Notes: generated from the sequence alone by a model not told the origin. A stretch of DNA of 64,000 nt from an uncultured Verrucomicrobiae bacterium (GCA_963719495.1 CAVRCI010000011.1:96001-160000), one strand, 5' to 3'. Numbered from the stretch's first letter, positions 15,306-50,065 are shown. A program made the numbers and translations.

Positions 15306-16406
15306 GTGAGCAAAGGAAAGAAAGCAGCTCAAACCGCGGCGGAACCTTCCACGCAGCGCGTGAATTTGAGCGACATCGCGCAGCGCGTCGGGGTATCCGT
15401 TGGGGCGGTCTCGAGCGTTCTCAATAACCGGCAAGTCGAGCGGCGAATCCCGGACGCAACGGCTGAGGCGATCCGGCAGGCGGCGGCAAGCATGGGATAC
15501 TTGCCGAACATCAACGCGCGGCGCTTGCGCAGCGGGGAGACGGTGAAAAATACCGTCATCCTGGCGTTGATCTCGAGTTTCGAGGCTCCGATCCCGTTGG
15601 TAAATCACTTCGTGGCGGCCCTTCACGGCGAAGCCGAAAAAGTGGTGGCGACCTCGGGCCGGAATACCTACTCGCTGATGATCGAGATGTTCTCGGCCGG
15701 TCGTTTGAGTGAACTGCCTGGGCTGCTGACGGGGCACGGATTCAACGCGGCGATCATCATGAACACGATTGCCGAGGACGACGAATTCCTGGCGGGAGTC
15801 CGGCTGCCCTACCCGGTCGTGCTGATCAACCGGGTCGTCGCGTCGCTGCCCTGCGTGGTGGAGGACGATGGGTCGGGCGGACGGGTCGCCGATTTGTTCA
15901 AACGGAAAAACCGGGTGCGCCCGGCGGTTCTGCACGGGGAGCCGATGACGCAGACGACGCGGCAACGTGTGAAGCGGTTTGCCGAAAGGTCCCGACATCA
16001 CAACGGCGAGGACCCGGCGGAGATCGTGGCGTCTTCGCTCTCGGAGGAGGGAGGCTACGCGGCAATGCGGACTTTCCTGAAGCGCGGCGGGCGGTGTGAC
16101 TCGCTCTACTCCGTGTCCGATGCGCTCGCGTTGGGTGCCTATCGCTCAATCAAGGAAGCGGGTCTGCGCATCCCGCGGGACGTCGCGGTAATCGGGGTCG
16201 GCGATTACGATCTGGCTCCGTTCTTCGATCCGCCTCTGTCGTGCGTGGGGGTGTCGCATCCACGGTTGGCGACCGAGGCGAGCGCGCTTCTTTTTCAACA
16301 ATTGCGGGGCTCTCCGACCGATGCCCGGGTGACTGTGCCGGTGGACGAAAGTCTGCGGGATTCGCTGGGTGACAAGGTGCCCAAAACGGCTGGCCGGTCT
16401 GTTTAG
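15306..16406 (+). CDS. LacI-family transcriptional regulator
   Basis: HTH LSDIAQRVGVSVGAVSSVLN, hinge GYLPNINARRL, C-terminal GLRIPRDVAVIG...PPLS. Confidence 0.93.
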   Translation: MSKGKKAAQTAAEPSTQRVNLSDIAQRVGVSVGAVSSVLNNRQVERRIPDATAEAIRQAAASMGYLPNINARRLRSGETVKNTVILALISSFEAPIPLVNHFVAALHGEAEKVVATSGRNTYSLMIEMFSAGRLSELPGLLTGHGFNAAIIMNTIAEDDEFLAGVRLPYPVVLINRVVASLPCVVEDDGSGGRVADLFKRKNRVRPAVLHGEPMTQTTRQRVKRFAERSRHHNGEDPAEIVASSLSEEGGYAAMRTFLKRGGRCDSLYSVSDALALGAYRSIKEAGLRIPRDVAVIGVGDYDLAPFFDPPLSCVGVSHPRLATEASALLFQQLRGSPTDARVTVPVDESLRDSLGDKVPKTAGRSV

Positions 16407-16423
16407 CAATTTTTCGTCAATCT

Positions 16424-16439
16424 GCTAAAACCTTTTTGC
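16424..16439. promoter_or_regulatory. Candidate LacI operator 1
   Basis: GCTAAAA-CC-TTTTTGC upstream of the catabolic operon; motif recurs at four other promoters. Confidence 0.7.
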
Positions 16440-16476
16440 TTGCGATCGTCACTGCGTTGGGTTTGGGTGCTGGGAG

Positions 16477-18525
16477 ATGAAATTGACGTTGTTCCCCCCG
16501 GTTCTTGGAGTGTTGGCATTGGTGCTCGGAGGTGCGGGCGGGGCGCTGGCCGACGGAATGCCGGAGCGGTTCGCGCCGATCACGCACGGCGTCGAGGGGT
16601 TGACCGCGGACGTGGGCGTCGGGTTGTGGGGTTGGCCGATGACCGTGGATCGCAACGGCGACGGACACTTGGATCTCACGCTAGTCGCGGGGGCCATGCC
16701 GAAGGGAACGTTCTACTACGAGAACACGGGGCGGGCGGACGAGAAGACGGGCGGGCCGCTTTTCGCGGCGCCGACGCGGATCGGTGACGGGGGGAACGAT
16801 CTGACGCTTTCAGTAACGTCGACCGGGCCGCGGGTGCTCGGTCCGGGCGTCGAGTATCCGGATTTTTTGGAGGAGGGTTTGGGCGAGGGGAAGAATCTTT
16901 CGGTCGACGAGGAGTCCGTCCACTTGTCGAGTGGGCGGACCCGCGGCAAGCAATGGAGCTACGTGGACTACGATGGCGACGGCGTGCTCGATTTGATCGT
17001 GGGGGTTGGGGATTGGACGGATTACGGCTGGGACAACGCTTACGATGCGAATGGCCGCTGGGTGAACGGACCACTGCACGGCTTCGTTTACGTGCTGAAG
17101 AATCGCGGGACGGACGACGCGCCGGATTACGCGGAGCCGGTGCGACTTCAGGCGGACGGTCGGGACATCGACGTTTACGGGATGCCTTCGCCGGTGTTCG
17201 CGGATTTTCGGGGGACGGGGAAGTTGGATCTCATTTGCGGAGAGTTTGTGGATGGATTGACGTTCTTCGAGAACATCGGGACGCGCGAGGAGCCGAAGTA
17301 TGCGCCGGGTCAGCGGCTGCGCTTCGACGGCAAGCCGATCACGATGCCGCTAGAGATGATCGTGGTGACGAGCGCGGATTGGAATGGCGACGGTCGACCC
17401 GACCTCGTGGTCTCGCAGGAGGACAGCCGGACGGCGTGGCTCGAGAATACGGGGGAGTTGGTCGACGTGACGGATAACAAAGGGGAAGTCGTGGCCCGGA
17501 TCCCGGAGTTTCGGCGTCCGGAATTTTTCCGGCAGATCGCGGACGACGTGCGGTTCGGCGTGCTGACCTCGCCCGTGTCGGTCGACTGGAACGGCGATGG
17601 CCGGGACGACATTCTGACCGGTAACGCCGCGGGCGAGATCGCGTTCATCGAGAACCTTGGCGGGTCGCCGCCAACCTGGGCGGAACCGGAATTGCTCGAG
17701 GCCGACGGCGAGCCGATCCGGATCATGGCCGGACAGAACGGATCGATTCAGGGTCCGGCGGAGTCAAAGTGGGGCTACACGAACATTGGCGTCGGCGATT
17801 GGGATGGCGATGGGTTGGCCGACGTCGTGGCGGGGTCCATTCTGGGCACGGTCGTCTGGTATCGAAACGTGGGGACGGCGAGCGCCCCCGAGCTGGCGGG
17901 GGCCGAGCCACTGCGGGTAGCTTGGGAAGGCGCGCCGCCAAAGCCGGAGTGGAATTGGTGGGATCCGGAGGCGAACGAACTCGTGGTCGAGTGGCGCTGC
18001 ACGCCGGTGGTGATCGATTTGGACGGGGATGGGATCAATGATTTAGTGAGCGTCGATCACGAGGGGTATCTCGCATGGTATCGGCAGGTGGAAAGGGACG
18101 GCGGGCGGGTGTTGTTGCCGGGCCAGCGGGTTTTTCAGATGCAGGGACCTTCGACCTTCGACGCAAAGCACAAAGCGACGGGTGACGAGGATGGGTTGCT
18201 GCGGCTGAGCGACGGCTACGCTGGGAGATCGGGACGCCGGACCTACGCGTTTGTCGACTGGGACGGCGACGGTCGGCTGGATCTGCTGGTGAATAGCCGC
18301 AACGTGAATTTTCTGCGCAACGTGTCGGACGTCGAGGGTGAGTGGATCTTCGAAGACCGGGGGCCAGTCGACGGGCGGCGCCTGGCGGGCCACAGCACGA
18401 CGCCCGCGGTCGTGGATTGGGACGGTGATTCCATCCCGGACCTGCTCGCGGGTGCGGAGGACGGACGATTTTATTACCTGAAAAACCCGCGGTCGGTGCC
18501 CGCGAACGGCGACTCGAGCGAATGA
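16477..18525 (+). CDS. Secreted FG-GAP/VCBS-repeat beta-propeller protein
   Basis: Signal peptide; many D-W/Y-D/N-G-D-G-x-x-D-L repeats. Confidence 0.9.
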   Translation: MKLTLFPPVLGVLALVLGGAGGALADGMPERFAPITHGVEGLTADVGVGLWGWPMTVDRNGDGHLDLTLVAGAMPKGTFYYENTGRADEKTGGPLFAAPTRIGDGGNDLTLSVTSTGPRVLGPGVEYPDFLEEGLGEGKNLSVDEESVHLSSGRTRGKQWSYVDYDGDGVLDLIVGVGDWTDYGWDNAYDANGRWVNGPLHGFVYVLKNRGTDDAPDYAEPVRLQADGRDIDVYGMPSPVFADFRGTGKLDLICGEFVDGLTFFENIGTREEPKYAPGQRLRFDGKPITMPLEMIVVTSADWNGDGRPDLVVSQEDSRTAWLENTGELVDVTDNKGEVVARIPEFRRPEFFRQIADDVRFGVLTSPVSVDWNGDGRDDILTGNAAGEIAFIENLGGSPPTWAEPELLEADGEPIRIMAGQNGSIQGPAESKWGYTNIGVGDWDGDGLADVVAGSILGTVVWYRNVGTASAPELAGAEPLRVAWEGAPPKPEWNWWDPEANELVVEWRCTPVVIDLDGDGINDLVSVDHEGYLAWYRQVERDGGRVLLPGQRVFQMQGPSTFDAKHKATGDEDGLLRLSDGYAGRSGRRTYAFVDWDGDGRLDLLVNSRNVNFLRNVSDVEGEWIFEDRGPVDGRRLAGHSTTPAVVDWDGDSIPDLLAGAEDGRFYYLKNPRSVPANGDSSE

Positions 18526-19493
18526 TGACAACGATTCAAACCCTCGAAGCCGATCAGCCCGCATCGGCGACGCTGCCGATCTCGCCGGAGGCTCCGCGCT
18601 CGGGCATCCTGGCGGCTCTCTGGATCCCGACTGACGAGGCGGGAGAGCCCCGAACGGATCTGCTCGCACGGCACGTGGCGTGGCTGGAACGCAAGGGCGT
18701 GCACGGCATCCTGGCCCTGGGAAGCACGGGGGAATTCGCCCGGATGGAACTCGGAGCGCGCGCCAACCTGCTGCGCGAGATCATGGCGTTGCGGAGCGAG
18801 TTGCCGGTGATCGTGAACGTGAGTTCGATCCGGCTGGACGACGTGATTTCGCTCGGGCGGACGGCGCGGGGGCTGGGAGCGGCGGGGGTCGCGCTGATGC
18901 CGCCGCCATTTTTTCCGCTCGATCAGGAGGACATCCTGGAATTTTTCCTGCGGGCGTCCGAGGCGTTCGACCTGCCCGTCTACCTCTACAATTACCCGGA
19001 AGTGACGGGTAATCGGATCGGTCCGGACGTCGTGCGGGACTTCGCCACGCGGGCGCGGATGGTGGGAATCAAGCAGAGCGGCGGCGAACTCGATTATCAC
19101 GATGAATTGATCGCCTTGGGCCGCGAGCACGACTTCTCGGTCTTCACGGCCGCCGATCCACGGCTCGGAGAATTTCTCGAGAAAGGAGCCGCGGGGTGCC
19201 TCGGGGGACTGGCGAATTTCCTGCCGGAATACATGGTCACCGTCTTCGACGCCTGCCGCCGGGGCCGGGGCGACGAGGTCGCGGAGATCTCTCGGCGTCT
19301 GTTGAAGGTCGGTGAGATCCTGGCGCCGCTGAATCTGCCCTATAATGCGCGGGCTGGAATCGAGGCGCGAGGATTCGATCCGGGGGCGGTGAAAACGGTC
19401 GTTTCGGCGCGGACGATGGAGGCGTGCGGGCTGGCGCGGGATCGATTGGTGGAGAAATTCGTCGAATGGGGTCTCGAGATCGAAACCAAGTAA
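18522..19493 (+). CDS. DHDPS/N-acetylneuraminate-lyase family class I aldolase
   Basis: GSTGEF, YLYNYP, Schiff-base Lys in VGIKQSGG. Confidence 0.9.
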   Translation: MMTTIQTLEADQPASATLPISPEAPRSGILAALWIPTDEAGEPRTDLLARHVAWLERKGVHGILALGSTGEFARMELGARANLLREIMALRSELPVIVNVSSIRLDDVISLGRTARGLGAAGVALMPPPFFPLDQEDILEFFLRASEAFDLPVYLYNYPEVTGNRIGPDVVRDFATRARMVGIKQSGGELDYHDELIALGREHDFSVFTAADPRLGEFLEKGAAGCLGGLANFLPEYMVTVFDACRRGRGDEVAEISRRLLKVGEILAPLNLPYNARAGIEARGFDPGAVKTVVSARTMEACGLARDRLVEKFVEWGLEIETK

Positions 19494-19521
19494 GTTCGAG
19501 TCAAACGCTCCGTTCCCCCGA

Positions 19522-21036
19522 ATGAACTCCCATTTCACGGTTCTCGATTTCGCCATTCTCGTCGTCTATTTCGCGGGGACGATGGCGGTGGGCGTCTTCT
19601 TCTGGCGGCGGAGCCGGTCGGTCGACGCGTTCACGGCGGCGAGCGGCAGCCTGCCGGGGTGGCTGACGGGACTGTCGATCCTCGGCACCTACGTCAGCAG
19701 CATCAGTTTCCTGGCCCTGCCGGGAAAGGCGTTTGCGGCGAATTGGAATCCGTTCGTCTTCAGCCTTTCGATTCCGCTGGCGACGTGGGTGGCGGTGAAG
19801 TGGTTTCTACCGTTCTACCGGCGGGGCGGGCACATCTCGGCCTACGAGCATTTGGAGGAACGATTCGGGCCGTGGGCGCGGGTCTACACGAGCGCGTGTT
19901 ATCTGCTGACCCAGCTCGCGCGCATGGGCACGGTGATGTATCTAATGGCGCTGCCGATCAGCATCCTGCTCGGATGGGACATTTGGTGGATCATTCTGGT
20001 GACGGGGGTATCGGTCACCATCTACACGTTCATCGGCGGGATCGAGGCGGTGATCTGGACGGACGCGATCCAGACGGTCGTGCTGATCTTCGGCGCGATT
20101 CTCTGCGCTTTGCTGATGCTCTTCGGCCTGCCGGAGGGGCCGGGTCAGGTTTTTCGGATCGCGGCGGAATACGATAAATTCAGTCTCGGCAGCTATTCGT
20201 TCGACCTCTCGCAGTCGACGTTCTGGGTGGTGCTCGTCTACGGGCTGGTGATCAATCTGCAGAACTTCGGAATCGATCAGAATTACATTCAGCGTTACCT
20301 GACGTCGAAATCCGACGCGGAGGCTCGGAAGAGTGTCTGGATGGGCGGGCTGCTTTACGTGCCGCTCTCGGCGGTCTTCTTCTTCATTGGGACGTTGCTC
20401 TTCGCGTTTTACCTGACGCACCCCGGCGAGTTGCCCGAGGCCTACCAGGCTGCGGACAAGAGCGATTACGTTTTTCCAAATTTCATCGTCACGGTTCTGC
20501 CGCCCGGAGTGACGGGTCTGCTCATTGCGGCGATCTTCGCCGCGGCGATGAGCACGGTATCGAGTAGCCTGAATTCGTCGGCGACGATCGTTCTCAATGA
20601 CTATTACAAACGCTACCTCCGACCCGCTGCGACGGACCGCCAGTGCATGGCGGTGCTCTACGCGGTGACGGTCGTGTGGGGAGTGCTGGGCACGGGAATG
20701 GCGCTCGCGATGACGCGGGTCCCGAGCGCGCTCGACGCGTGGTGGATGCTGGCGGGCATCTTCGGCGGCGGGACGCTGGGACTGTTCTTGCTCGGATTCC
20801 TGAGCCGGAAACCGCGGGCGTTCTCCGCGGCGGTTGGAGTGATCGTGGGACTGCTCGTGATCGTGTGGATGACGCTTTCGCCGAAGATCCCGGGGCTGCC
20901 CGCGGGGTTGGTGAGTCCGTTTAACGGCTTCCTGATCGTGGTCTTCGGCACGAGCGCAATTCTCATCGTTGGCCTGTTGGTCACCGCGTGGCTGCGTCCG
21001 GCCGCTCCCGCCCATTCACCCCCACCGGATTCATGA
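19522..21036 (+). CDS. Sodium:solute symporter (sugar/sialic-acid type)
   Basis: SSISFLALPG, GGIEAVIWTDAIQ, DQNYIQRY, AAIFAAAMST; about 13 TMs. Confidence 0.92.
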   Translation: MNSHFTVLDFAILVVYFAGTMAVGVFFWRRSRSVDAFTAASGSLPGWLTGLSILGTYVSSISFLALPGKAFAANWNPFVFSLSIPLATWVAVKWFLPFYRRGGHISAYEHLEERFGPWARVYTSACYLLTQLARMGTVMYLMALPISILLGWDIWWIILVTGVSVTIYTFIGGIEAVIWTDAIQTVVLIFGAILCALLMLFGLPEGPGQVFRIAAEYDKFSLGSYSFDLSQSTFWVVLVYGLVINLQNFGIDQNYIQRYLTSKSDAEARKSVWMGGLLYVPLSAVFFFIGTLLFAFYLTHPGELPEAYQAADKSDYVFPNFIVTVLPPGVTGLLIAAIFAAAMSTVSSSLNSSATIVLNDYYKRYLRPAATDRQCMAVLYAVTVVWGVLGTGMALAMTRVPSALDAWWMLAGIFGGGTLGLFLLGFLSRKPRAFSAAVGVIVGLLVIVWMTLSPKIPGLPAGLVSPFNGFLIVVFGTSAILIVGLLVTAWLRPAAPAHSPPPDS

Positions 21037-22562
21037 AAAACCCGATCATCAACGCGGCAGCATCGCTGTTGCTGATTCTTCCCGTCGCCGCGGCCGCGGT
21101 CCGACCAGCGCCCGTCTTTCAGGACGGCGTTGTGCTCCAACGCGACCGTCCGGTCCCGGTTTGGGGAACCGCTGAGCCTCGCGAGGAGATCGTCGTCGAG
21201 TTTGCGGGACAACGGAAGGAAGCGGAGGCGGACGAAGGTGGCAAATGGCGCGTCGATCTCGATGCGCTGCCAGCCAGCGCGGAAGCGGGAACTTTGAAAA
21301 TAACCGGTACCGACGTGGTGACGGTCGGCGACGTGTTGGTCGGTGAGGTCTGGATCTGCGGCGGCCAGTCGAACATGGAGTGGACGGTGGACCGCGCCGG
21401 CAATGCCGAGGCCGAAGTGGCGGGGGGAACTTTCCCGCTCATCCGGCATTTCAAGGTCGAGCGGGCGGCGTCCGAGCAGCCGCTGGATCAGCTCGAGGGC
21501 AAGTGGGTCGCGGCGTCTCCGGCGACCGTCGGAGATTTTTCAGCAGTGGGCTATTTCTTCGGGCGGGAGCTGTTTGGCAATCTCGACGTCCCGATCGGGT
21601 TGGTCAATTCGAGCTACGGCGGGACGGAGATCGAAGCGTGGATGAGCGCGAAAGGGCTGGCGGCCACGTCGGTGGCGGCGAGCGTGGAGGCCCGCTGGCA
21701 GGAACGAGTCGCGGCGTTTCCAGCGGACGTCGAGAAATACGAGGCGGCGGTGGCCAAGTGGGAGACGGCCCGCGACGAGGCGCGGGCTGATGGCCACAAA
21801 TTTGCAAAAAAGCGCCCGCGCGAACCCGAAGGACGCGGCACCCGCAAGCAGCCTTCGACGCTCTACAACGCGATGATCAATCCGCTGATCCCCTTCGCGG
21901 CCCGGGGCGTGATCTGGTATCAAGGCGAGGCCAATCAGGGCCGGTCCGCGGAATACGCGGAGCTCTTCCCGGGGATGATTTCGCAGTGGCGGGGGGACTT
22001 CGAGCAACCGGGACTGCCGTTCTATTTCGTCCAACTCGCGAACAACGTTCGCAAGAACGATCCGAGCGGGGAAGCCTGGGGGTATCTGCGGGAGGCGCAG
22101 ACGAAGGCTCTGGAACTCCCGGCGACCGGCATGGCCGTGGCGGTGGACATCGGCGAGTCGGACGACATCCATCCGAAGAACAAGCAGGAAGTGGGGCGGC
22201 GGTTGGCGTTGTTGGCGCTGGCGAACGTCTACGACCGTCCGATCGAATTCGCCGGACCGCGCTTCGCGGGAACGCGGATCGAGGACGACCGGATCGTCGT
22301 GGAGTTTGCGAATGCCGAAGGTCTGGAACTCCGGGCGGAGAACGGCGAAACCGGCTTTGCGATCGCGGGTGCCGATCTGAAGTTCCGGCTCGCGGCTGCT
22401 GAGGTAAAGGGCGGCGAGGTGTGGGTCGGCGCGGACGAAGTGCCGTCCCCGACCGCGGTGCGCTACGCGTGGGCCAATGACCCGATCGCGACCCTCTTCA
22501 ACGGCAGCGACCTTCCGACGGAACCGTTCCGCACGGACGAGGTGCCGGAAGCCGTAGATTGA
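21033..22562 (+). CDS. Sialate O-acetylesterase (SASA/SGNH family)
   Basis: [26 protein letters not shown]; signal peptide from ATG 21033. Confidence 0.92.
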
Positions 22563-24226
22563 GCGCCAACATCGACTCTGTGAAACAGGATCGCTATTTC
22601 GTCGGGGTCGACGTGGGGACAGGCAGTGCGCGGGCGGGCGTCTTTACCAGCGCTGGTCGTCGGTTGGGGATGGCGAAGCGGGACATCCAAACGTGGAAAC
22701 CCGCACCCAATTTCGTCGAGCAATCATCGGACGACATCTGGCGCGCGGTCTGCGATTCCGTCCGCTCGGCCGTGTCGGAGAGCGGAATCGACGCGGGGGA
22801 GGTCGCGGGCATCGGCTTCGACGCAACGTGCTCGCTCGTTGTGCTCGACGGTGCCGGCGAGCCGCTGCCGGTCACTCCAGACGGACAGGCGGCGCAGAAT
22901 GTGATCGTGTGGATGGATCACCGAGCGGTGGCCGAAGCGGCTCAGATCAATGGCTTCGGTGAGGAAGAAGTGCTCCGCTACGTCGGCGGAAAAATCTCGC
23001 CCGAGATGCAGATTCCGAAACTGCTTTGGCTGAAATCGCACCACCCGACGACTTGGCGAGCGGCGGCGCACTTTCTCGATCTGCCCGACTTCCTGACCTT
23101 TCGGGCGACGGGTGATTTGACGCGGTCCCTGTGTTCGACGGTCTGCAAGTGGACGTATCTCGGGCACCGGACGGCGGAGCAGGGTGGGGGCTGGGACGAA
23201 TCGTTTTTCGCTCGCGTCGGGCTGGAGGACTTGCCGGGAGTGGATGCGGCGCGTATCGGCTCGCGGATTCGTCCCGTGGGCGAGTCGATTGGGCATGGTC
23301 TCTCGGAGTCTGCCGCCCAATCCCTCGGACTCACCGCGGGGACGGCGGTCGGTGTCTCGCTGATCGACGCGCATGCGGGGGGCGTCGGGATGGTGGGAGC
23401 GTCGATCGAAACGGGCGACCAGGTCGATTTCAACCGGCGACTCGCGCTCATCGGCGGGACCTCGTCCTGCCACATGGCGGTTTCCACCGACGCACGATTC
23501 ATTCCCGGGGTGTGGGGTCCGTATTGGTCGGCGATGATCCCTGGGCTCTGGCTGAACGAGGGAGGGCAGTCGGCTTCCGGCGCGCTGGTCGATCACGTGA
23601 TCGGAACCCACGGGGCAACGGGCGAATTGAATGACTCAGCCGCGCGCGGCGTGGTCTCGGTCTACGAATTTCTCAATCGTCGACTGGACGCACTCGCGGC
23701 GGATGGGACCGTGGATTTCCTGACCGGGCACCTGCACGTGAATCCGGACTTCCACGGGAATCGGTCCCCGCGGGCGAACCCGGATTTGCGGGGAATGATC
23801 TGCGGGTTGCGGCTGTCGAGCACGCTCGACGACCTGGCGCTGCTCTATCTCGCCACGGTGCAGGCGATCGCCTGCGGGACGCGGCACATCGTCGAGGAGT
23901 TCAACCGCAACGGTTACGAGATCGACACGATCTTCGTCTGCGGCGGAGGGACGAAGAACCCGGTCTTCCTGCGGCAGCACGCGAACGTCACCGGCTGCCG
24001 TCTGATCCTGCCGGAGGAACCCGAAGCGGTCCTGGTGGGAGCGGCGATTCTGGGAGCGGTGGCCGCGGGTGATTTTCCATCCGTCGAGGCGGCCATGCGG
24101 GAAATGACGCGTTCGGGGTCCGTGGTCGATCCAGACTCCGCGACGAAGGATTTTCACGACCGGAAACTTGCCGTGTTTCACCGGCTGCACGCCGACCAGG
24201 TCGCCTACGAAGGCCTCATGCGATGA
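22559..24226 (+). CDS. FGGY-family pentulose (D-ribulose-type) kinase
   Basis: [72 protein letters not shown]. Confidence 0.92.
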
Positions 24227-24251: not shown

Positions 24252-24267
24252 GCTAAAAGGTTATTGC
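24252..24267. promoter_or_regulatory. Candidate LacI operator 2
   Basis: GCTAAAA-GG-TTATTGC upstream of 24318. Confidence 0.6.
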
Positions 24268-27215: not shown

Positions 27216-27231
27216 GCTATAAGGATTTAGC
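27216..27231. promoter_or_regulatory. Candidate LacI operator 3
   Basis: GCTATAA-GG-ATTTAGC just upstream of the PEP-CTERM gene. Confidence 0.65.
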
Positions 27232-35838: not shown

Positions 35839-35851
35839 CGCGATCGCTTCG

Positions 35852-37884: not shown

Positions 37885-37939
37885 TCTTCTCCGATTGGAG
37901 TCGCCTCCTGTCCGACCAAGGCACGCCCCCCACCCATTC

Positions 37940-41615: not shown

Positions 41616-41657
41616 CGTTGGAGCGAGACTAGCACGGTTCTGGTCTGGCCGTGCCGA

Positions 41658-42293
41658 TCAATAGTTGACGACGACTTGACCTGAGAGGCCCGAGACGAGG
41701 ATCGAGGCGGTCTTGTCCACGACTTCGGTCGTCCCGCGCATTTCGCGGAGCGGGATTTCGATCCAAGCCGACGTCGCGGCGGGATCGAGCAGGGCTTCGC
41801 CTTGCGGTGAGAACGCGATGATCGTTCCGGTAAACGAGACCGATTGGCCGTCGACCGGGGCTGCGAATACGAATGGGCTGCCTTCAAGCACCCTCGTGCC
41901 GACGGGAGTGCCGTCGGTGCGCGCGGGGAGGAGTTTGACGTTCTCGACGCGGACCGGACGGGTGAGGGGGAGGAGGTTTGCGCTGGTCGTGTCCCGCGTG
42001 CCGTCGCGTGAGATGACGGTGGTGATGGCGAGCTCGGGCGTGCTCGCGGCGTTGGCCTTCGTGGTGTCCGCCACGCCGACCCAGACCCATGTGCTTTGAG
42101 CCATGGCTTCCGTTCGCGCGAGTTCGAGAGAATCCGAGACCGACGTAATGGCCCGGCGCATTCCGCTTCCCTGGGTCAGGCTGACGAGCGCGGGGACCGC
42201 GAGGCCGACGAGCACCGCGATCACGGCGATGACGACGAGAAGCTCGACGAGGCTGAAGCCGGTGCCGCGGTGAGGGGGGAAGGATTGGATCAT
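41658..42293 (-). CDS. Prepilin-type protein (Verru_Chthon cassette protein D-like / FimT-like)
   Basis: G|FSLVELLVVIAVIAVL methylation motif; ARTEAMA; FSPQG. Confidence 0.85.
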   Translation of the reverse strand: MIQSFPPHRGTGFSLVELLVVIAVIAVLVGLAVPALVSLTQGSGMRRAITSVSDSLELARTEAMAQSTWVWVGVADTTKANAASTPELAITTVISRDGTRDTTSANLLPLTRPVRVENVKLLPARTDGTPVGTRVLEGSPFVFAAPVDGQSVSFTGTIIAFSPQGEALLDPAATSAWIEIPLREMRGTTEVVDKTASILVSGLSGQVVVNY

Positions 42294-42317
42294 GGTCGGG
42301 CTCGAAATGGGTCAGGG

Positions 42318-43142
42318 TCAAGGCGGCGTCGGTGGACGGTATTTCTCCGCGAGTTCTTCCCGCCAGCGGTCCAGTTCGTCCCGGAACGATTGGGGCGGAT
42401 CGAGCTGCGGCGCGTCGAACTTGTATTGGTAAGTCCGGACGTTCTCGCCGTCGTCGACGTAGACGGGCAGTCGGGAGGCGGCGTCGATCAGCGCGACCAG
42501 TGGACGGGCGTCGGCGGCCTGGGTGGCGGGACCTTCTTCGGCGTCGATCCTTCGCTGGGCGACCTCGCGGGGGGAGAGGCGTTTCCCGGCGGGCGTTACT
42601 GAATATTGAAGGAGAGTGCGGTCGCCGACTTCGTGCGTGGCGACGAAGTTCGCCGGGTCGATCCACTCGGCTGCTTCGAAGTCGCTCCGGGAGTAATCGG
42701 AAAAGTTGGACGGGTAGTTGACGAGATCGATTCTGGCGATGCGCTTCGACGTCGGGGTCTCGTAAACCTGGAGGCCCCCGGACACCCATTTTTCCGTTTT
42801 TCTTCCGCTCGCCCAGTGGGTGACTTCGCGGTAAAGCGTGCCCTGCTTGGAGACTACGATCTTCTCGACGACCGCGGCGGCGATGGATTCGGGAACCTCG
42901 TCTCCGGAGTCGGTGGGATCCGGTGCCTCCTCGGGCTTCAACGTTGCGGCGAGCGCCGCTTCCGGATTGCGTTCCACGGTGATCGTCCATTCGGATCGAT
43001 CCGGAGCGCGCATGGCCGGGAGGTCGGTCGATGTCTCGGATTGGGCGAAGCCGGACACCGCGATGGCGAGGGTGAGCAAGCAGGGCAATCCGAATGACCT
43101 GGCAAGGTGACGTTTTGGGTTTTGTTGAAGCGGCGGGGTCAT
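42318..43142 (-). CDS. Secreted hypothetical protein inside the pilin cassette
   Basis: ATG at 43142 just after the cassette A stop; signal peptide ending GFA. Confidence 0.7.
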   Translation of the reverse strand: MTPPLQQNPKRHLARSFGLPCLLTLAIAVSGFAQSETSTDLPAMRAPDRSEWTITVERNPEAALAATLKPEEAPDPTDSGDEVPESIAAAVVEKIVVSKQGTLYREVTHWASGRKTEKWVSGGLQVYETPTSKRIARIDLVNYPSNFSDYSRSDFEAAEWIDPANFVATHEVGDRTLLQYSVTPAGKRLSPREVAQRRIDAEEGPATQAADARPLVALIDAASRLPVYVDDGENVRTYQYKFDAPQLDPPQSFRDELDRWREELAEKYRPPTPP

Positions 43143-43146
43143 CTGA

Positions 43147-46100
43147 TCAATCGTTGACCGCTTCGGCGAAGCGGGCGGTGACGCCGCCGGTGTAGCGGTC
43201 GATGGCGAGGTGAATCCAATAGCGTTGTTCCCCGGAGATCGAGAACTCGTCGAGCGTGGCCGCGCTGGCGGGGTAGCGACCGGATTGAACGATGAGGTCG
43301 ATGAGAAAGGCCCACGTCCGGGTCGTGCCGCCGTCCACCAGGGCGCGTAGGACATTCTGCCGTCGGACCTGCAATGTCCGATCCTCGGAGCTGCCGAGCT
43401 GGGCGGCGAGTTCGGTGGAGAAACCGGCGAAGTTTTCCGTCGCGGCCCCGCCGAGGTCGGGGTCAAAACGGCCGACGATCTCGGCCCGGTTGCGAAGCGG
43501 ACCTTCTCCGGGGTCGGTGCCGCTGGTCCATTCGACAAAAGCTTCGGCGATGGCGTTGGCCTCGCCGTCGGGGAGGACGGCACCGTCGGTCCGGGCGACG
43601 CCGCGAAGCAGCGCTTCGACGACCGGGGCCTGGCGGGTATTCAGATTGACTCGGCCGCTCACGATGGGTTCGGCAGTGGGCTCGTTCGGCTCGTGAATGC
43701 AGAAGACGTCGAGCAGCGCGACGTCGGCGCTCTTCGGCGTCCAGAAATCGAGTTGTTTCCAGGGCTGACCGCGAAAGGCGTAGCCCAGCTCCGCGACGGA
43801 GCGGAAGGGACGGTCGAGGATGACGGGGCGGCTGCCCAGGTTTCCGGTCGCGAACGGGAGGCCGAGGGTGCCCGCCCCGTCGAACTCGGCGGCCATCCCG
43901 GCGCGGATGACGCCGTCGGGGTCGCCGTAGTGGATGTCGTCGCTCGGGGAATTCCGGGCGATGGGCATCCAAAATCTCCAAGTCCCCGTGTCGTTGATCG
44001 TCCAGTTGACGGCATTTGGGTCGGTCGCGCCACCGTTGCTAAATTTGCCGAGCTGAAGCTGGGGTTCGGAGCCGTAGGGGGCGGGATACGGGTTGGCCGC
44101 CCAAGCCGACCAGCCCTGAAACCAATGCCGATACTCGTCGGTCGTGCCGGATTTGTGGACGTAGTTGTTCCCGTCGCGCGGGCCGTAGCGGTCGGTGCGC
44201 GGGTCGATCTTGAGCGAGAATCGCATCATGGGACGACCGCGATTGGTGACGCCGGCGGGGATGTCGTGCCACGCGGGATTGGACGCGCTGAAGGCTGGGA
44301 AGACGTCGTAGGTGGCCCAGCCCCCGGCGGGAGTGCGGTATTGAAGCTCGAAATCGATGCCATTTCCCAGCACGCGGCAGGAGCGAAACCACTGGTGGAC
44401 CTCGCCGTCGGTCGTGGGGCCGCCCCAGATCGTTCCGACCTTGAAACCGATCACGCTGGTTGCCGGAGTCGTCGCCCCATCGGCCTCCTCGTTGGGCTCC
44501 TCCCCGGCCAACACCGGCTGAGTCCAGTAACCGGTGGCTTCGCTGCCCGGCGGATAGTTTGGCGAGGAGAGTGTGTAGGGGTCCCGGAAGGCGGCTTTAC
44601 CAGTGGAAGTCGTGCTGAACGACATGACGTCCGTGGCCGGATTGAACGCGATGACCGCTCCGCCGGGTAAGCTGTTGTCCTGCGGATTGGAACTGGGAAA
44701 ATAGTCGACGTATCCGCCGATCCGCGGTGCCCAGGTCGAGTTCGCTCCGGCGAAAACGTCGAATCCGCTGGACGCCGTGATCCGGAACTCCGTCGGTCCA
44801 TCGCCGAGGTTCGTGGTGGGTGCGTGGGGATTCCAAAGCGTGGGCTGAAGCATGAGAGCGCATCGGTAAATGATCGGCGGCGTCTCCTCGGGCGATGGAG
44901 TGGCGGGCACGGGCACGGTGATGTCCGCCGGATCGACGATCTCGACCCGGTAGGGCGCGGTGCGGATGAGGTAGAGATACGGGAGATTCTCCGCGCCGAA
45001 AAAAGTGCGCCCCTCGAACTCGATGCGGGTTGGGTAGCTGTCGGCGTCGAACTGGTCGATGATGTTCGCGGCGATCTGGATGATCTGATAATTCACGCTG
45101 CCGTGCGAGCCGCCGATCAGCCGCGGTGATCCCGGCGGCTCGGGCGGTGAGGTGTTTTGAAATTGTCCGCCGAGCGAACCCACGCCGATGGCGGCCTTGA
45201 GCAACTCGACGAAATTGGGTTCGCGTCCGCTGATCTCTGACAAGCGCTTGATCTCGGTCGTGCTGCCGTCGACCTGGTAGCGCCACGCGTAGGAGCTGGC
45301 GTCCCACGTCAGGCCAAATTCGTCGGCAACTTCTCCAGGTTCGGGTGGGTCGGGGACTACGGCTTCGAGGCGGTCGAGCGGGAAACGGCGTTTGGCGACG
45401 GGATCTCCGTTCGAGTCGGTGACGGTGAGAAAATTCGGATTGATCCCGTCGTCGGATCCGTGGGCGTCGTTTCCACCAGAGGCCCGGTCACGCTGAATCT
45501 TCGGACGGCCCGGATCGGGGGCAAAGGACGGTTGGTCGAGGTCCGCGGAGAAGGTCGTGAGAAACGGAAGCGCGTCGGGGGTGATCGCACCGCTTCCGTG
45601 CGTCGCGACGTAGTCGAGTAGGTCTTGGCGACTGTAGAATCGATTTTCGCTGGCTCCGGAAGTGACGTAGGGGGCGCTGAATCCACGGGGTTCGCTCCAC
45701 TCGTTCACCAATTTCTCGTAACCGTTGGCGGATCCGGCGGTGAGTTTGTTCCGCCAAAGAAAAAAGTCTTCGATCGCCGCGCGGTCGCTCAAGCCGGGGA
45801 GAGCGGTCAGGTCCGCCCAGGCGACGGAGCCCTTGTCTGCCGCTTCGCTGGCGGCGGCGGCGGGGAACCCGGCGGCGTTGATGTCGAGGAGGCCGCCGAC
45901 GTCGTAGATGTTGTAGGCGAAACGGCCGATCACGTGGTCGCTATTGCCTTCCGTCGCATCGTTGAAGTCTCCGGGATTGCCTCCGTCGGCGAGCGGCCCA
46001 TCGCGCGAGATGAGGATCCAGTCGGGGAGTTGATCGGTCGCGGTGAAGCCGCCGCCGCCGAGGAGGCGGGGTTGGTTCCAGCGCTCGGTGCTGACGAGTC

Positions 46101-46587
46101 GACCGGAGGTGCTGGGGTCGGCGGTGCTCACGCTGGACCCGCGCGTGCGACCCTCGGCGTTGGCCGCCGAGCCTTTGGCCGTGAAGGTTGCGGGGTTAGT
46201 GCCGGGGTAGAACGGGGCGGAGCGGCGACTTTGTTTGACGAGATTGGCAAACTCGGGGTCGGCTGGAGCGATGGTCGCCGCGAGCACGCGACCGGGGACC
46301 ATGGCCCAGGGTTGGGAGACGAGGAACGGATCGCCGTCGGCGGGCGGAGCGGCGCCGTCCGATCCGGCGAGCATTTCCTGCCGAATGTCGGCGACGATGG
46401 CTGCCGTGGCGGTCTCGGCCAGGAGTTCGGTGTGGGTTATGGCGGCGCTGGACGTGCTGCGTTTGAGCGAGCTTCGCGTGGTGGCGAGATAGGTGAGGAG
46501 AATGACCGTGATCAATACGACGAAAGCCAGCACGATGAGTAACGCGCTGGCCGTTGTCGGGCGGGGATGAGGAAGTCGGTGGCTCAC
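43147..46587 (-). CDS. Large PilX-like protein (Verru_Chthon cassette protein A-like)
   Basis: N-terminal ALLIVLAFVVLITVILL, GRFAYNIYD..LDIN, AANIIDQFDAD, RPFRSVAELG, GRVNLNT; GTG overlaps the stop of C. Confidence 0.85.
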   Translation of the reverse strand: MSHRLPHPRPTTASALLIVLAFVVLITVILLTYLATTRSSLKRSTSSAAITHTELLAETATAAIVADIRQEMLAGSDGAAPPADGDPFLVSQPWAMVPGRVLAATIAPADPEFANLVKQSRRSAPFYPGTNPATFTAKGSAANAEGRTRGSSVSTADPSTSGRLVSTERWNQPRLLGGGGFTATDQLPDWILISRDGPLADGGNPGDFNDATEGNSDHVIGRFAYNIYDVGGLLDINAAGFPAAAASEAADKGSVAWADLTALPGLSDRAAIEDFFLWRNKLTAGSANGYEKLVNEWSEPRGFSAPYVTSGASENRFYSRQDLLDYVATHGSGAITPDALPFLTTFSADLDQPSFAPDPGRPKIQRDRASGGNDAHGSDDGINPNFLTVTDSNGDPVAKRRFPLDRLEAVVPDPPEPGEVADEFGLTWDASSYAWRYQVDGSTTEIKRLSEISGREPNFVELLKAAIGVGSLGGQFQNTSPPEPPGSPRLIGGSHGSVNYQIIQIAANIIDQFDADSYPTRIEFEGRTFFGAENLPYLYLIRTAPYRVEIVDPADITVPVPATPSPEETPPIIYRCALMLQPTLWNPHAPTTNLGDGPTEFRITASSGFDVFAGANSTWAPRIGGYVDYFPSSNPQDNSLPGGAVIAFNPATDVMSFSTTSTGKAAFRDPYTLSSPNYPPGSEATGYWTQPVLAGEEPNEEADGATTPATSVIGFKVGTIWGGPTTDGEVHQWFRSCRVLGNGIDFELQYRTPAGGWATYDVFPAFSASNPAWHDIPAGVTNRGRPMMRFSLKIDPRTDRYGPRDGNNYVHKSGTTDEYRHWFQGWSAWAANPYPAPYGSEPQLQLGKFSNGGATDPNAVNWTINDTGTWRFWMPIARNSPSDDIHYGDPDGVIRAGMAAEFDGAGTLGLPFATGNLGSRPVILDRPFRSVAELGYAFRGQPWKQLDFWTPKSADVALLDVFCIHEPNEPTAEPIVSGRVNLNTRQAPVVEALLRGVARTDGAVLPDGEANAIAEAFVEWTSGTDPGEGPLRNRAEIVGRFDPDLGGAATENFAGFSTELAAQLGSSEDRTLQVRRQNVLRALVDGGTTRTWAFLIDLIVQSGRYPASAATLDEFSISGEQRYWIHLAIDRYTGGVTARFAEAVND

Positions 46588-47372
46588 GGGAGGGGGAGGT
46601 AGCGTTGGTTGAAGCGGACGTTCCGGCCGACGAAGGGCGGGTAGGCGGAGAAATCGCCGACGGTCCACGCGGTCGACGGCGCCGACCCATTCGCCGCGTC
46701 GGGCAGGGCGGTCGCGAGGGAAGCGCGTTGGGCGGAGGTGAGTTTGGCCAGGGAATCGGCGTCGAGCGATGCGGTGGCGCAAACCACGGCGGAGATCTCG
46801 TCCGCTGGCGGTGGGGTGGCGACGAGTGTCCCGTCGGTTGTCAGGAAGGCGAGTTCCAGCCGGAAGACGCCGCGTCCGAGTGGCTGGAGGTCGGCGGCCG
46901 CCGAGGGATCGACCCGGGTGACGTCATCGGTCCAGAGAAACGGCTCCGCGCAACGCAGGAGGGCCGTCGAGGCGTATCCCGGCGAAGTCGACGTCGCCTC
47001 GCCCACTTCGTAACCGATCCGGGCGAAACGCGACGCGGCGCTGGTGGTCCGCGTGGCGGCGAGGAAGCGGATCGCGTCGTTGGGTGACGTGACCGAGCCG
47101 ACGGCCTGGGAATTTTTGAGAAACTCGATCCCAATGCCGCCGCGGCGAACGCTGGCGTCGAGGTCGAACGCGAGTCGGTCGAAGATTGTCCGGGATTCGT
47201 TGCCGCTCTCGATCCGGTCGGTCGAGGAATCGGTGAGGCCGACGAAATTCGAGAAGAGGCCCGCCAGGATCGTCGTGAGCAGCGCGAGGACCGCGCACGT
47301 GACGAGAATCTCGAGGATGGTGAACGCGTCGGATCGGCGGGCGGGTCTGGGGGAAGACGGCATCGGGGGCAC
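46584..47372 (-). CDS. Prepilin-type protein (Verru_Chthon cassette protein C-like)
   Basis: A|FTILEILV; FDRLAFDL. Confidence 0.83.
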   Translation of the reverse strand: MPPMPSSPRPARRSDAFTILEILVTCAVLALLTTILAGLFSNFVGLTDSSTDRIESGNESRTIFDRLAFDLDASVRRGGIGIEFLKNSQAVGSVTSPNDAIRFLAATRTTSAASRFARIGYEVGEATSTSPGYASTALLRCAEPFLWTDDVTRVDPSAAADLQPLGRGVFRLELAFLTTDGTLVATPPPADEISAVVCATASLDADSLAKLTSAQRASLATALPDAANGSAPSTAWTVGDFSAYPPFVGRNVRFNQRYLPLP

Positions 47373-47377
47373 CGGGG

Positions 47378-47860
47378 TTACATTGCCGCCTTCATCGCGA
47401 CGCTTTCGACGGGGCTTCCGAGGGTCTTGTCGCCGGCACCGGGGGCGGTGCGTTGGATGCGCAAGAAGAGGCGGTAGTTGGCGAAGCGCGACGCCGGGGC
47501 CTCGACCGCGTAATTGACTTTAAACCGTTGATCCATGGCGGCGATTTGAAAATTTTCGTCCAAGCCGATGGAACCTTCGGTCGCCGACGCGCCGATGGCG
47601 GGAAGCTGGATTCCGTAGGCTGTCGAGTGCGTCTGCCCGGTGGGGATGGATCGAAAGTCGGCGGCGACGGCCGAGAGCACTTCGAGCGCCAGTAATTGGT
47701 CGGTGGATTGGCGCTCCTGCTGAAGTCCGACGGACGCGAGCCCGAGCATGGCGACGAGGCAATACGACATCAACCCGATGGCCATCGTCACTTCGACCAG
47801 TGAGAAGCCGCCGGTCAGTCCGACACGACGGGATGGGCAATGGGGAGGAGAGACTTGCAT
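47378..47860 (-). CDS. Prepilin-type protein (Verru_Chthon cassette protein B-like)
   Basis: G|FSLVEVTMAIG...MLGL..VGL. Confidence 0.85.
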   Translation of the reverse strand: MQVSPPHCPSRRVGLTGGFSLVEVTMAIGLMSYCLVAMLGLASVGLQQERQSTDQLLALEVLSAVAADFRSIPTGQTHSTAYGIQLPAIGASATEGSIGLDENFQIAAMDQRFKVNYAVEAPASRFANYRLFLRIQRTAPGAGDKTLGSPVESVAMKAAM

Positions 47861-47963
47861 GCGGGGGGGAATTGGAAAAGTGCCGGGAAACGAGGGTCGT
47901 TGCGATGCGGGAGTTTCAGGACGGCTCGCCGGAGAAAAACTTCTCGCATCGCCGGAAGCATCC

Positions 47964-47979
47964 GCTATATCCTTTTAGC
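47964..47979. promoter_or_regulatory. Candidate LacI operator 5 (divergent promoter between pilin cassette and sialidase-like gene)
   Basis: GCTATAT-CC-TTTTAGC. Confidence 0.65.
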
Positions 47980-47984
47980 TGTCA

Positions 47985-49319
47985 ATGAAGTTGCCGCGAA
48001 ATTTGCGAAGGAGTCGGTCGGCGGTGGCGGGATGTCTGATCCTGGCGGTGGCGGTGGCGGCGATCGCTCGGGGCGGTTCGGTTCCGCTTGTGGCCGGGCC
48101 GCCGGTCGAGGTGGCGCGGAGTGCCGACGCGCGGAACGCGCCCTTGGTCTCGCCGAGTCTGCTGCGGCTGGATGGGGGGCGATTGGTCGCGACTTACACG
48201 GAGGTGAGCAAGCGGGATGCGGAGGGACGAGATGAACAGGTGATGCTGACGTCCGGCGACGGGGGACAGCGGTGGGACGAGCGCGCGAGGTTGGCCGCGG
48301 TGCAGGGGCGGGTTTTTGCCAGTGGGGATGATCTGTATTATTTGGCGACGGGTCCGGGACTTCCGATCAGTAAGTCGGAGGATCGCGGGGAGACCTGGAG
48401 CGAGCCGGTCGACCTCACGGATCGGAGCCAAACGTGGCAGCAGACGGCGGCGAACGTTTGGTATGCCAATGGGAACGTCTACGTCGCGATGGATCTGCGG
48501 ATGCGCGAGATCGACGCGTGGGGAGCGGGTGAAAAAGCTCCCGTGTTGCTGCGGGCGCGGGTAGGGGACGAGCTGACGGACCCCGCGAGTTGGACGTTCT
48601 CCGAGTCGATGGCGTTCGCCGACCTCATCCCCGGCTACCGGGAGAACGAGCCGGAGATCGATTTCTTCGGCATCCCCTTCTATCGGCAGGAATACCCGGA
48701 GCGGGCGCGAATCGTTCCGGGTAGATCCTTTTCGCCGATGGGGTGGGCCGAGGGAAACGTGGTGCAGATCCTCGATCCCGACGACTACTGGTTCGACGAG
48801 TCGGGGCGGACGTTTCACATCTTTCTGCGGGCGCTCACCGGGATGGCGAACTACGCCGCGGTGATCAAAGTGGTCGAGCGTGCCGACGGGTCGATGACGA
48901 CGGAGGTCGAGCGGGCTCCGTCGGGCAAAAAACTGCTCTTTCTTCCATTCCCGGGTGGTCAGATGCGGTTTCACGTCCTCTACGACGAGGCGACGAAACT
49001 CTACTGGCTGCTGTCGAATCAGACCACGGATTCGATGAAGCGAGCGGATCGTCTGCCGGAGGACCGGCATGATCTGGCCTACGGGGAGCGTCACCGGCTG
49101 GTGCTCCATTTTTCGAAGAACATGGTGGACTGGTGTTTCGCCGGGGTAGTGGCGATCGGCGAGAGCGCGAAGGCATCCCGACACTACGCGGCGATGGATT
49201 TCGACGGGGACGACCTCGTGATCCTATCCCGCAGCGGAGACGAGGACGCGCACGATGCGCACGACGGCAACCTCATTACTTTTCACCGCATCAAGGATTT
49301 CCGCGAACTGGTTTACTGA
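47985..49319 (+). CDS. Secreted BNR/Asp-box (sialidase-like) protein
   Basis: Asp-boxes SGDGGQRW and SEDRGETW; SPSL; ERHRL; SRHY. Confidence 0.8.
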   Translation: MKLPRNLRRSRSAVAGCLILAVAVAAIARGGSVPLVAGPPVEVARSADARNAPLVSPSLLRLDGGRLVATYTEVSKRDAEGRDEQVMLTSGDGGQRWDERARLAAVQGRVFASGDDLYYLATGPGLPISKSEDRGETWSEPVDLTDRSQTWQQTAANVWYANGNVYVAMDLRMREIDAWGAGEKAPVLLRARVGDELTDPASWTFSESMAFADLIPGYRENEPEIDFFGIPFYRQEYPERARIVPGRSFSPMGWAEGNVVQILDPDDYWFDESGRTFHIFLRALTGMANYAAVIKVVERADGSMTTEVERAPSGKKLLFLPFPGGQMRFHVLYDEATKLYWLLSNQTTDSMKRADRLPEDRHDLAYGERHRLVLHFSKNMVDWCFAGVVAIGESAKASRHYAAMDFDGDDLVILSRSGDEDAHDAHDGNLITFHRIKDFRELVY

Positions 49320-49336
49320 AGCTGCTGACTCCCTCT

Positions 49337-50065
49337 ATGAAAACACCTCATCCCTTCCCAAGATTTTCCCGTTTGGGAGCCATCCTTGCCCTGACCGCCG
49401 CGGCGCATCTGCCAGCCGAAGTGCTCGTTGGCTGGAACCCGCAGGGGTTCATCTACGTCGGACCCGACCGAGCCGCCGCTCCCGACCCGTGGTTCGAAGC
49501 GCGTCTCGATCGGGATGGGCATCCGGTAGGCGTGGTTCACGTGGCCGATCACGTGAAGCTCGTGGAGGGGCTCACACGAGGAAGTGCGTGGCGGGCCGGT
49601 GCCCTGAACCACGGCTGGGGTGGCCGGATGAACCCGGCGGCGACCTACGATCAGGAAGAAGCGGCGGATACCGGAACCTGGATTCAATTTAAAATCGCTC
49701 CGGATGACGGCTGCGAGTTGTCGCTCGAGTCCCTCTCGGCGAACGTGCGGCTACCTCCCGTGGGGGCTGAATATTTTTACCGTTGGCAATATGCGGTCGG
49801 CACCGGGAAATTCGAGGACATCGGGGACGTGGTGGAGGGAACTTACGGATCGGTCGCGCGGCCCGGTGACGACGGATTTGCGCTGCCGGTTGTCGAGCTG
49901 TCGGGGGTCGAGGCTCTACAGGGTCTCGCGGAACCGGTGACATTGCGCATTCTCGTGTGGATGGCCCCCGATTACCTGCCTGAGGCTGACTTCGCCTGGA
50001 TTTTTGGCCGGACGTCGGGCGATGACCTAACGTTGCGGGGGAGCGTGACGCGGGTGTCCCGGTGA
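49337..50065 (+). CDS. Secreted hypothetical protein
   Basis: Signal peptide; beta-rich (QFKIAP...LSLESL) pattern. Confidence 0.7.
   Translation: MKTPHPFPRFSRLGAILALTAAAHLPAEVLVGWNPQGFIYVGPDRAAAPDPWFEARLDRDGHPVGVVHVADHVKLVEGLTRGSAWRAGALNHGWGGRMNPAATYDQEEAADTGTWIQFKIAPDDGCELSLESLSANVRLPPVGAEYFYRWQYAVGTGKFEDIGDVVEGTYGSVARPGDDGFALPVVELSGVEALQGLAEPVTLRILVWMAPDYLPEADFAWIFGRTSGDDLTLRGSVTRVSR

Follow-up and report, generated by a model that had tools for sequence, protein, structure and literature searches.

A 16-bp palindrome as the predicted operator of a LacI-family regulator in an inserted glycan island of an uncultured Verrucomicrobiae bacterium

How glycans are sensed and taken up in Verrucomicrobiota without SusC/SusD is poorly understood, and a 64,000-nt stretch of DNA from an uncultured Verrucomicrobiae bacterium (GCA_963719495.1; genome G000, contig C11, positions 96001-160000; hereafter the window) raises the question of whether one regulator and one operator motif could hold such a locus together. 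The window encodes a LacI-family regulator of 366 residues (15306-16406, plus strand; Pfam LacI HTH and Peripla_BP_3), and downstream of it a 16-bp palindrome recurs between genes for sugar catabolism, surface proteins, oxidoreductases and pilin-like proteins. We called genes by codon bias and annotated them with Pfam and NCBIfam, which gave 33 open reading frames (ORFs) in the island; the genome is 4.54 Mb in 16 contigs and 98.6% complete. As set out below, the palindrome is very probably the operator of the island LacI, which would hold down four transcription units until a sugar-derived effector is present.

A first reading of the window, made from the sequence only, had listed five copies of the palindrome, and all five 16-mers are found exactly where it placed them. 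All are intergenic and upstream of a start codon in our gene calls, and two occupy divergent intergenic regions (35210-35307 and 47861-48023). Four are strong sites, namely O1 (GCTAAAACCTTTTTGC, 16424-16439), O2 (GCTAAAAGGTTATTGC, 24252-24267), O3 (GCTATAAGGATTTAGC, 27216-27231, ending 26 nt before an ATG) and O5 (GCTATATCCTTTTAGC, 47964-47979, in the second divergent region), while the remaining one, at 35283, is only a half-site with a background score. The window consensus GCTAAAANNTTTTAGC had seven matches with up to three mismatches in the window, versus a mean of 0.47 and a maximum of 3 in 100 dinucleotide shuffles. Across the 4.54-Mb genome there were 38 matches at this stringency and only seven with up to two mismatches, four of which are the strong island sites and one of which lies at C6:3093. 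Two further three-mismatch matches in the window, at 35498 and 49766, are inside genes and score at background. The half-site GCTAAAA occurs 48 times in non-coding and 74 times in coding DNA over both strands of the genome, and this rarity in non-coding DNA indicates that the motif is not a general promoter box.

We then asked whether the motif is linked to the regulator outside this genome. The protein belongs to the LacI/GalR family (PF00356, 41.2 bits against a cut-off of 27; PF13377, 71.4 bits against 26.5), and it reached no equivalog cut-off in NCBIfam, the best model being of the RbsR type (126 bits against 382). The genome has 17 LacI-type helix-turn-helix (HTH) matches in all. Matches at E<=1e-20 were found in three of 41 same-order genomes, including G000 itself, and those in the other two are 28-30% identical, leaving no close homolog in the 40 same-order relatives. 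Among species-representative genomes a scan turned up a single close homolog, in locus L007 (53% identity), and a 400-genome sample of the phylum added ten more genomes with homologs, eight of them in one other family; a metagenome scan with the LacI alignment yielded only three loci, distant or partial. The resulting set comprises 12 loci in 11 other Verrucomicrobiota genomes at 38-59% identity, and the HTH and hinge are conserved over 13 aligned homologs.

In L007, five matches to the window consensus cluster at gene boundaries round the LacI gene, versus 0.19 expected. Over all 12 homolog loci (226,416 bp) the consensus had 24 matches with up to three mismatches and 14 with up to two, versus means of 2.4 and 0.1 in 30 composition-preserving block shuffles. 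The reversed pattern gave 12 and 0 matches at the same two stringencies; it is a poor control at three mismatches because the A/T runs are common to true sites. A de novo seed search of the non-coding flanks of the LacI homologs, which used neither the window nor the motif, returned GCTAAAACGTTTTTGC and shifted versions of it as its top seeds. We built a weight matrix from 12 foreign sites beside LacI homologs in seven training loci (consensus GCTAAAACGTTTTAGC) and applied it to the whole genome. This revealed that the five best hits are C6:3093 and O1 (24.8 each, joint best), O5 and O3 (21.3 each, joint third) and O2 (20.9, fifth), followed by a coding position at 19.6. As the matrix was built from foreign sites only, this ranking is independent of the choice of sites in the earlier reading. 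In about 784 kb of non-coding DNA, only five positions score at least 19, the four island sites and the C6 site, so that high-scoring matches, far from being equally frequent in unrelated intergenic DNA, are confined to the island and its paralog.

Sites scoring at least 18 were present in nine of the 12 homolog loci, which belong to different genera, and often stood less than 150 bp from the LacI gene. Seven of these nine had supplied training sites; the two others, L071 and L072, had not, and together with the window genome they are independent of matrix training. L072 is of particular use here. Locus L067 contains a long co-directional operon of 12 genes with no site in the stretch first examined, and the DNA upstream of it, L072, carries, immediately 5' of the operon's first gene, two tandem sites that score 22.2 and 22.1, confirming the expected site. 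A whole-genome scan of five relatives with a degenerate pattern gave no enrichment over the reversed-pattern control, and only matches with no or one mismatch beside LacI were informative there. De novo recovery, the genome-wide scan and cross-genome conservation thus all returned the same motif beside this group of LacI genes, and as it travels with the LacI homologs, the proposal of a LacI-family operator tied to the adjacent regulator gene is well supported.

Several homolog loci carry paired sites (L064:513/592 and 9356/9433; L065:9512/9591; L072:2974/3000; L007:11063/11101). Three of the pairs, 77-79 bp apart, head TonB-dependent-receptor operons in two genomes, and the window has single sites only. 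The pairs might permit looping by a tetramer.

The C6 site itself lies inside a 4.1-kb copy (C6:56-4145) that is 85% identical to window positions 15389-19470. The copy comprises LacI, the operator, and the FG-GAP and DHDPS genes that follow O1, and sits at a contig end; its LacI gene is frameshifted into two frames, and its FG-GAP and DHDPS genes are fragmented in the gene calls. A block of 28 nt round O1, the operator and 12 flanking bases, is kept perfectly, and the rest of the spacer has diverged. The copy may be a decaying paralog or a mis-binned strain variant.

The sites can be set against what is established for the family. In the part of a survey of LacI-family motifs that was available (PMC4052901), 1251 out of 1303 motifs are palindromes of even length (16-22 nt) and 1173 carry CG at the centre, and more than 75% of sites fall 30-140 nt before the start codon; the word Verrucomicrobia is absent from its main text, and a full-text literature search found no reconstruction of a LacI regulon for Verrucomicrobiota. 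The homolog group has a palindromic consensus of even length, 16 nt, centred on CG, and the window sites have their centres 34-59 nt ahead of start codons, inside the family's zone of -140 to -30. As in the local repressors of this family (RbsR, GalR and PurR among them; compiled through comparative genomics in the same survey), the protein combines HTH_LacI with a periplasmic-binding-protein-like sensor domain, and its gene adjoins predicted catabolic and transport targets, with autoregulation predicted in several homolog loci. Its differences from them are that it reaches no equivalog cut-off, that the window sites have unusual centres, that its own gene has no site, and that the predicted targets extend to a PEP-CTERM surface protein and, perhaps, to a pilin-like cassette.

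A number of observations count against this assignment. None of the four strong window sites has the canonical CG at its centre; CC or GG stands there instead. No site lies upstream of the LacI gene itself in the window, versus four homolog loci in which one is present, and three of the 12 homolog loci (L063, L066 and L070) have no site scoring even 12. The sites used for the matrix were picked by seed, so that scores within the seven training loci are partly circular. A scan for sigma-70 promoters round all sites found no promoter-like match, versus 1.9-2.2 expected in shuffles. O2 and O3, finally, lie in short gaps of a co-directional gene string and could be roadblocks or relics and not operators of separate promoters.

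With these points weighed, we propose that the LacI protein would bind as a dimer at O1, O2, O3 and O5, and that a sugar-derived effector would release it and switch on four units; here we infer that LacI binds, that it represses and does not activate, and what kind of effector it responds to. The first unit, behind O1, would be the core catabolic operon (16477-24226, plus strand; Pfam), which encodes an FG-GAP propeller (FG-GAP1), a DHDPS-family aldolase, a Na+/solute symporter, an SASA esterase and an FGGY pentulose kinase, the last scoring 677 bits against a cut-off of 409 with NCBIfam TIGR01315. Behind O2, the second would consist of a secreted 266-residue protein of unknown family, with an N-terminal signal-like sequence, and a second FG-GAP protein (24318-27184, plus strand; Pfam). 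The third, behind O3, would be a single gene (27258-29492, plus strand; Pfam, NCBIfam) for a PATR beta-strand-repeat protein (74.4 bits, above the Pfam cut-off) with a PEP-CTERM signal at residues 717-741 of 744 (PF07589, 23.9 bits against 20.7; TIGR02595, 24.7 against 16), and it is followed by a terminator-like hairpin read from the sequence (29525-29551, plus strand; 8-bp GC-rich stem, TTCG loop, T7 tail). The fourth, behind O5, would contain a gene for a BNR-like protein of 431 residues (weak BNR_2 match in Pfam) and one for a 230-residue protein of unknown family (48024-50065, plus strand), with the divergent pilin-like cassette as a possible further target. The catabolic operon, the second FG-GAP operon, the PEP-CTERM gene and the BNR-like gene are thus each preceded by a strong operator, in line with the sequence-only reading.

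Searches of the homolog loci with the island proteins (tblastn) separate a conserved part of this predicted regulon from one seen only in G000. Orthologs of FG-GAP1 were found in five loci (47-61% identity), of the DHDPS-family protein in three (46-49%), of the pentulose kinase in two (59-60%), and of the symporter and the SASA esterase in one each (70% and 49%), while orthologs of the BNR-like protein lie inside the LacI-homolog operons of L067 and L064 (50-62%). On this evidence the conserved core of the predicted regulon is FG-GAP1, the aldolase, the symporter, the esterase, the pentulose kinase and the BNR-like protein. FG-GAP2 is only 24-34% identical to the FG-GAP proteins of other loci, and no counterpart of the 266-residue protein, the PATR/PEP-CTERM protein, the pilin-like cassette or the 230-residue protein was found in the homolog loci; for the PATR/PEP-CTERM protein, a search of 400 further genomes of the phylum likewise returned no homolog at E<=1e-40. 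Within the predicted regulon, the second FG-GAP operon, the PEP-CTERM protein and the 230-residue protein are thus additions seen only in G000, as is the adjacent cassette, and the genes for the 266-residue and PATR/PEP-CTERM proteins stand directly behind the top-ranking operators O2 and O3.

The oxidoreductases, which the earlier reading had placed in the periplasm and in the regulon, fare differently. They belong to two divergent operons, one encoding HEAT, GFO/IDH/MocA, ThuA and 3-keto-disaccharide hydrolase proteins (30148-35209, minus strand) and the other a protein of unknown family, a GFO/IDH/MocA protein, an F5/8-C protein and an MFS transporter (35308-39184, plus strand; both Pfam, NCBIfam). 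The sole site near them (30148-39184) is the weak half-site GCTAAAACGTCATACC at 35283-35298. It has three mismatches, its right half TCATACC is not palindromic to its left half, and its score of 12.84 is reached by 76 genome positions, 37 of them non-coding, with about 0.1 such position expected in the 2,062 non-coding bases of the island. It shares the 13-mer AATCTGCTAAAAC with O1 and may be a decayed or auxiliary operator. A site with a background score gives no ground for placing the oxidoreductase operons in the regulon, their proposed membership is unsupported, and to say that one motif holds the entire ~35-kb island together goes too far.

The divergent region at O5 poses a second problem of extent. 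It is 163 bp long, and the centre of O5 lies 52 nt from the GTG of the BNR-like gene (48024) and 111 nt from the ATG of the pilin-like cassette (47860), with an AAGGAG box 10 nt 5' of the GTG. Since O5 is nearer to the BNR-like gene, which is a conserved member of the regulon and has the AAGGAG box, control of that gene is the safer inference; control of the cassette by O5 is possible. The cassette, which the earlier reading had placed in the regulon, is linked to it only by sharing this divergent region with a conserved target, and co-regulation is plausible only. A different inverted repeat, GAGAAAAACTTCTCGC, lies at 47932-47947, between O5 and the cassette start, and scores 8.2 with the LacI matrix.

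The cassette (39346-47860, minus strand; Pfam N_methyl, PMT_2 and ApbE) runs B, C, giant A, a gene of unknown family and D, followed by PMT_2/Agl23-like and ApbE genes. B, C and D have prepilin-type cleavage/methylation N-termini, with GFSLVE and AFTILE among the motifs in the cassette, and A proteins (1,128-1,211 residues) have a hydrophobic N-terminal helix. It had been named a Verru_Chthon cassette, a layout that we take from the family names to be three small prepilin-type proteins and one of about 1,100-1,300 residues. The layout agrees, with the same gene order B, C, giant A, D as in Verru_Chthon A-D (TIGR02600, TIGR02598, TIGR02599, TIGR02596); the scores do not, all four NCBIfam models falling below their cut-offs (bits: B 34.8 against 51.4, C 22 against 256.5, A 20 against 332.3, D 35.8 against 70), and an additional 256-residue gene separates A from D. 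The island showed no assembly ATPase and no platform gene, and the phrase 'Verru_Chthon cassette' was not found in a literature search. A 1,108-residue protein of L062 was considered as a homolog of cassette A and rejected, the similarity being weak, N-terminal only and at E 0.025.

G000 has about nine such pilin-like cassettes, as judged by the B and A models, and we ran Pfam on 20 kb round each of the eight others. Carbohydrate genes lie near seven of the eight (GH2, GH28, GH43, GH36-like, sulfatases, SASA, sugar transporters and kinases) and a sugar-type regulator near five (LacI in three cases, AraC in one, and in one a GntR protein that has a sugar-binding domain). Counting the island's own, carbohydrate genes accompany eight of the nine cassettes and some sugar-type regulator six, and LacI genes are present in four of the nine windows, versus about 0.075 expected per 20-kb window. 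As these windows are so rich in sugar regulators and sugar genes, co-regulation of cassettes with sugar functions looks like the rule. A scan for palindromes near the other cassettes found no recurrent motif. Beside the GntR/sugar-binding regulator and its pilin-like cassette, ExbB, two ExbD and a TPR protein are encoded (G000:C2:600300-607300; L078:12520-19330), and this in a genome that gave no match to the Plug domain of TonB-dependent receptors.

These data bear directly on a narrower regulon, in which O5 controls the BNR-like gene only, and the cassette and the oxidoreductases are co-inserted neighbours that are otherwise regulated or not regulated at all. We consider this close to an even chance, leaning slightly against. 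It is favoured by the fact that BNR-like orthologs are found inside foreign LacI-homolog operons, whereas the cassette, the PEP-CTERM protein and the oxidoreductases are not, and by the position of O5 and the background score of 35283 described above. The frequency of LacI genes, other sugar-type regulators and carbohydrate genes round the nine cassettes speaks against it, as do a G000 cassette with a GH2 gene on one side and an MFS_2 sugar transporter on the other, all on the same strand, and the fact that LacI is the only regulator that Pfam found in the island. A further point comes from the available part of a 2026 study of another verrucomicrobium (PMC13274419), which describes a pulG-like pseudopilin in an alginate-induced cluster, with 67 homologs in the same genome, and which also records over-expression of a pseudopilin on alginate.

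That the palindrome is instead bound by another factor, or is a shared promoter or structural element to which LacI is only incidentally close, is improbable. The CC/GG centres, atypical for LacI operators, would suit it, but the motif follows homologs of the island LacI in nine of 12 loci from different genera, no strong match occurs in the rest of the 4.5-Mb genome, the loci of its other LacI paralogs being no exception, and the half-site is rare in non-coding DNA. We give scarcely any credence to the idea that AT-rich intergenic stretches in a GC-rich genome resemble one another by chance. Intergenic DNA is indeed AT-richer than whole-window shuffles assume, yet all five non-coding positions that score at least 19 belong to the island or its paralog, and the 14 matches in the homolog loci stand against 0.1. 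Chance is effectively refuted for O1, O2, O3 and O5; it is a live explanation for 35283 and the likeliest one for 35498 and 49766. Operator control by the island LacI thus remains our preferred reading, and viewed simply as a LacI regulon, the locus would be nothing out of the ordinary. What makes it interesting is the set of genes it combines, in a genome in which searches found no TonB-dependent receptor, and how it compares with the receptor-bearing homologous regulons.

The absence of SusC/SusD and of any TonB-dependent receptor from the island had been noted from the sequence, and our searches bear it out, as none of the 33 ORFs matches Plug, TonB_dep_Rec or SusD. The whole genome likewise has no Plug match, with positive controls in E. 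coli, Caulobacter and B. thetaiotaomicron, and the six receptors of the homolog loci had no tblastn match in it at E<=1e-10; the absence noted for the island therefore holds genome-wide as searched. Genomes of the same family have 0-2. The situation in homologous LacI regulons is different from that in the island: of the nine homolog loci with sites, six carry a TonB-dependent receptor gene within the operon headed by the operator, mostly as the first gene after it, and such receptor-bearing regulons occur in another family. Like the SusC/SusD polysaccharide utilisation loci of Bacteroidota, the island brings together genes for surface binding, degradation, import and catabolism of a glycan, which are substrate-induced in those loci and predicted to be so here. 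It differs in having no adjacent pair of a SusC/TonB-dependent receptor and SusD, and in having a LacI repressor in place of a hybrid two-component system, SusR, or an extracytoplasmic function (ECF) sigma/anti-sigma pair.

In a more speculative extension, which we think unlikely, LacI would co-induce catabolism together with the PEP-CTERM beta-repeat protein and a locus-specific pseudopilin tip cassette, both taking the place of the TonB-dependent receptor of the homologous regulons as the capture or export module of a locus without SusC/D; if so, each glycan locus would carry its own pilus tip. The comparison is a natural one, as the same regulator and operator head receptor operons in another family, versus a PEP-CTERM gene and an adjacent cassette here. 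The locus moreover offers a clean, testable regulon, with one repressor, four high-confidence predicted operators and a defined 36-kb insertion.

As to the substrate, the most economical reading of the core genes, which we hold tentatively and with some doubt, is that they serve to break down a 3-deoxy-ulosonic acid, for instance Kdo. The aldolase would cleave Kdo to pyruvate and D-arabinose, which would be converted through D-ribulose to ribulose-5-phosphate. Two homolog loci carry an additional fucose/D-arabinose-isomerase-like gene, and a 61-63%-identical copy lies elsewhere in G000 with no operator nearby. L-fucose isomerase also acts on D-arabinose, and TIGR01315-type kinases include D-ribulokinases. 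The FGGY pentulose kinase and the isomerase-like gene together suggest a pentose product. The predicted regulon resembles sialic-acid clusters (NanA lyase, SiaT-type sodium symporter, NanS esterase, sialidase) in combining a DHDPS/NanA-family aldolase, a SiaT-like SSF symporter, an SASA acetylesterase and a BNR-like protein. It differs from them in having no NanK or NanE, in having the FGGY pentulose kinase instead, and in that its main constant partner is an uncharacterised FG-GAP propeller. Identification of the aldolase as NanA itself was rejected on its scores (NF003164, 69.5 against a cut-off of 281; TIGR00683, 51.4 against 382), and no ROK kinase or epimerase was found in the Pfam results for the island. 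The BNR-like protein had only marginal anhydrosialidase matches in the PDB (E about 0.003).

FG-GAP1 is the most constant partner gene of LacI across the homolog loci and belongs to a family with at least 5,600 homologs at E<=1e-30; among the best 120 homologs listed, every name given by the source is VCBS, FG-GAP or hypothetical. Its AF2 model has a pLDDT of 90.3, and a Foldseek search of the PDB pointed to no enzyme, its matches being limited to generic beta-propellers, lectins and CRTAC1-like chains; phmmer against PDB sequences gave no matches. The core genes may point to an undescribed way of breaking down a 3-deoxy-ulosonic acid (possibly Kdo) in which a very widespread, uncharacterised FG-GAP propeller takes part.

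The island is a genuine insertion. The genes that flank it (12755-15178 and 51597-52757) are 32-144 bp apart in three of five same-genus genomes and on separate contigs in the other two, and since they are neighbours in three congeners, the intervening 15179-51596 is a 36.4-kb insertion. Its extent is also marked by GC skew, which is 0.0-0.2 within the island and 0.3-0.4 in the flanks. Mobility genes and att-like or flanking repeats were searched for at the island ends and none were found; six ORFs of unknown family had no match in PHROGs, and Rfam had no family over window positions 12000-53000.

The skew of the genome as a whole is unusually strong, with a median absolute value of 0.19 per 5 kb and peaks of 0.4-0.48 (genome; window 1-15000 and 50000-64000), and entire contigs have a single sign. 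As this sign is common to genes of both strands, the skew looks replication-linked. Blocks of low skew on contig C11 correspond to the inserted island and two other cassette-bearing regions. Within the island, the 655-bp gap 3' of the PEP-CTERM gene contains a 125-bp repeat (29875-29999), with five more copies at 89-94% identity on contigs C12 and C13, that is not a tRNA and has no Rfam family. Outside it, a perfect 46-bp palindrome (55427-55472) lies in a divergent intergenic region and is followed at 55575-55660 by about eight tandem copies of gtgtgaggttgg.

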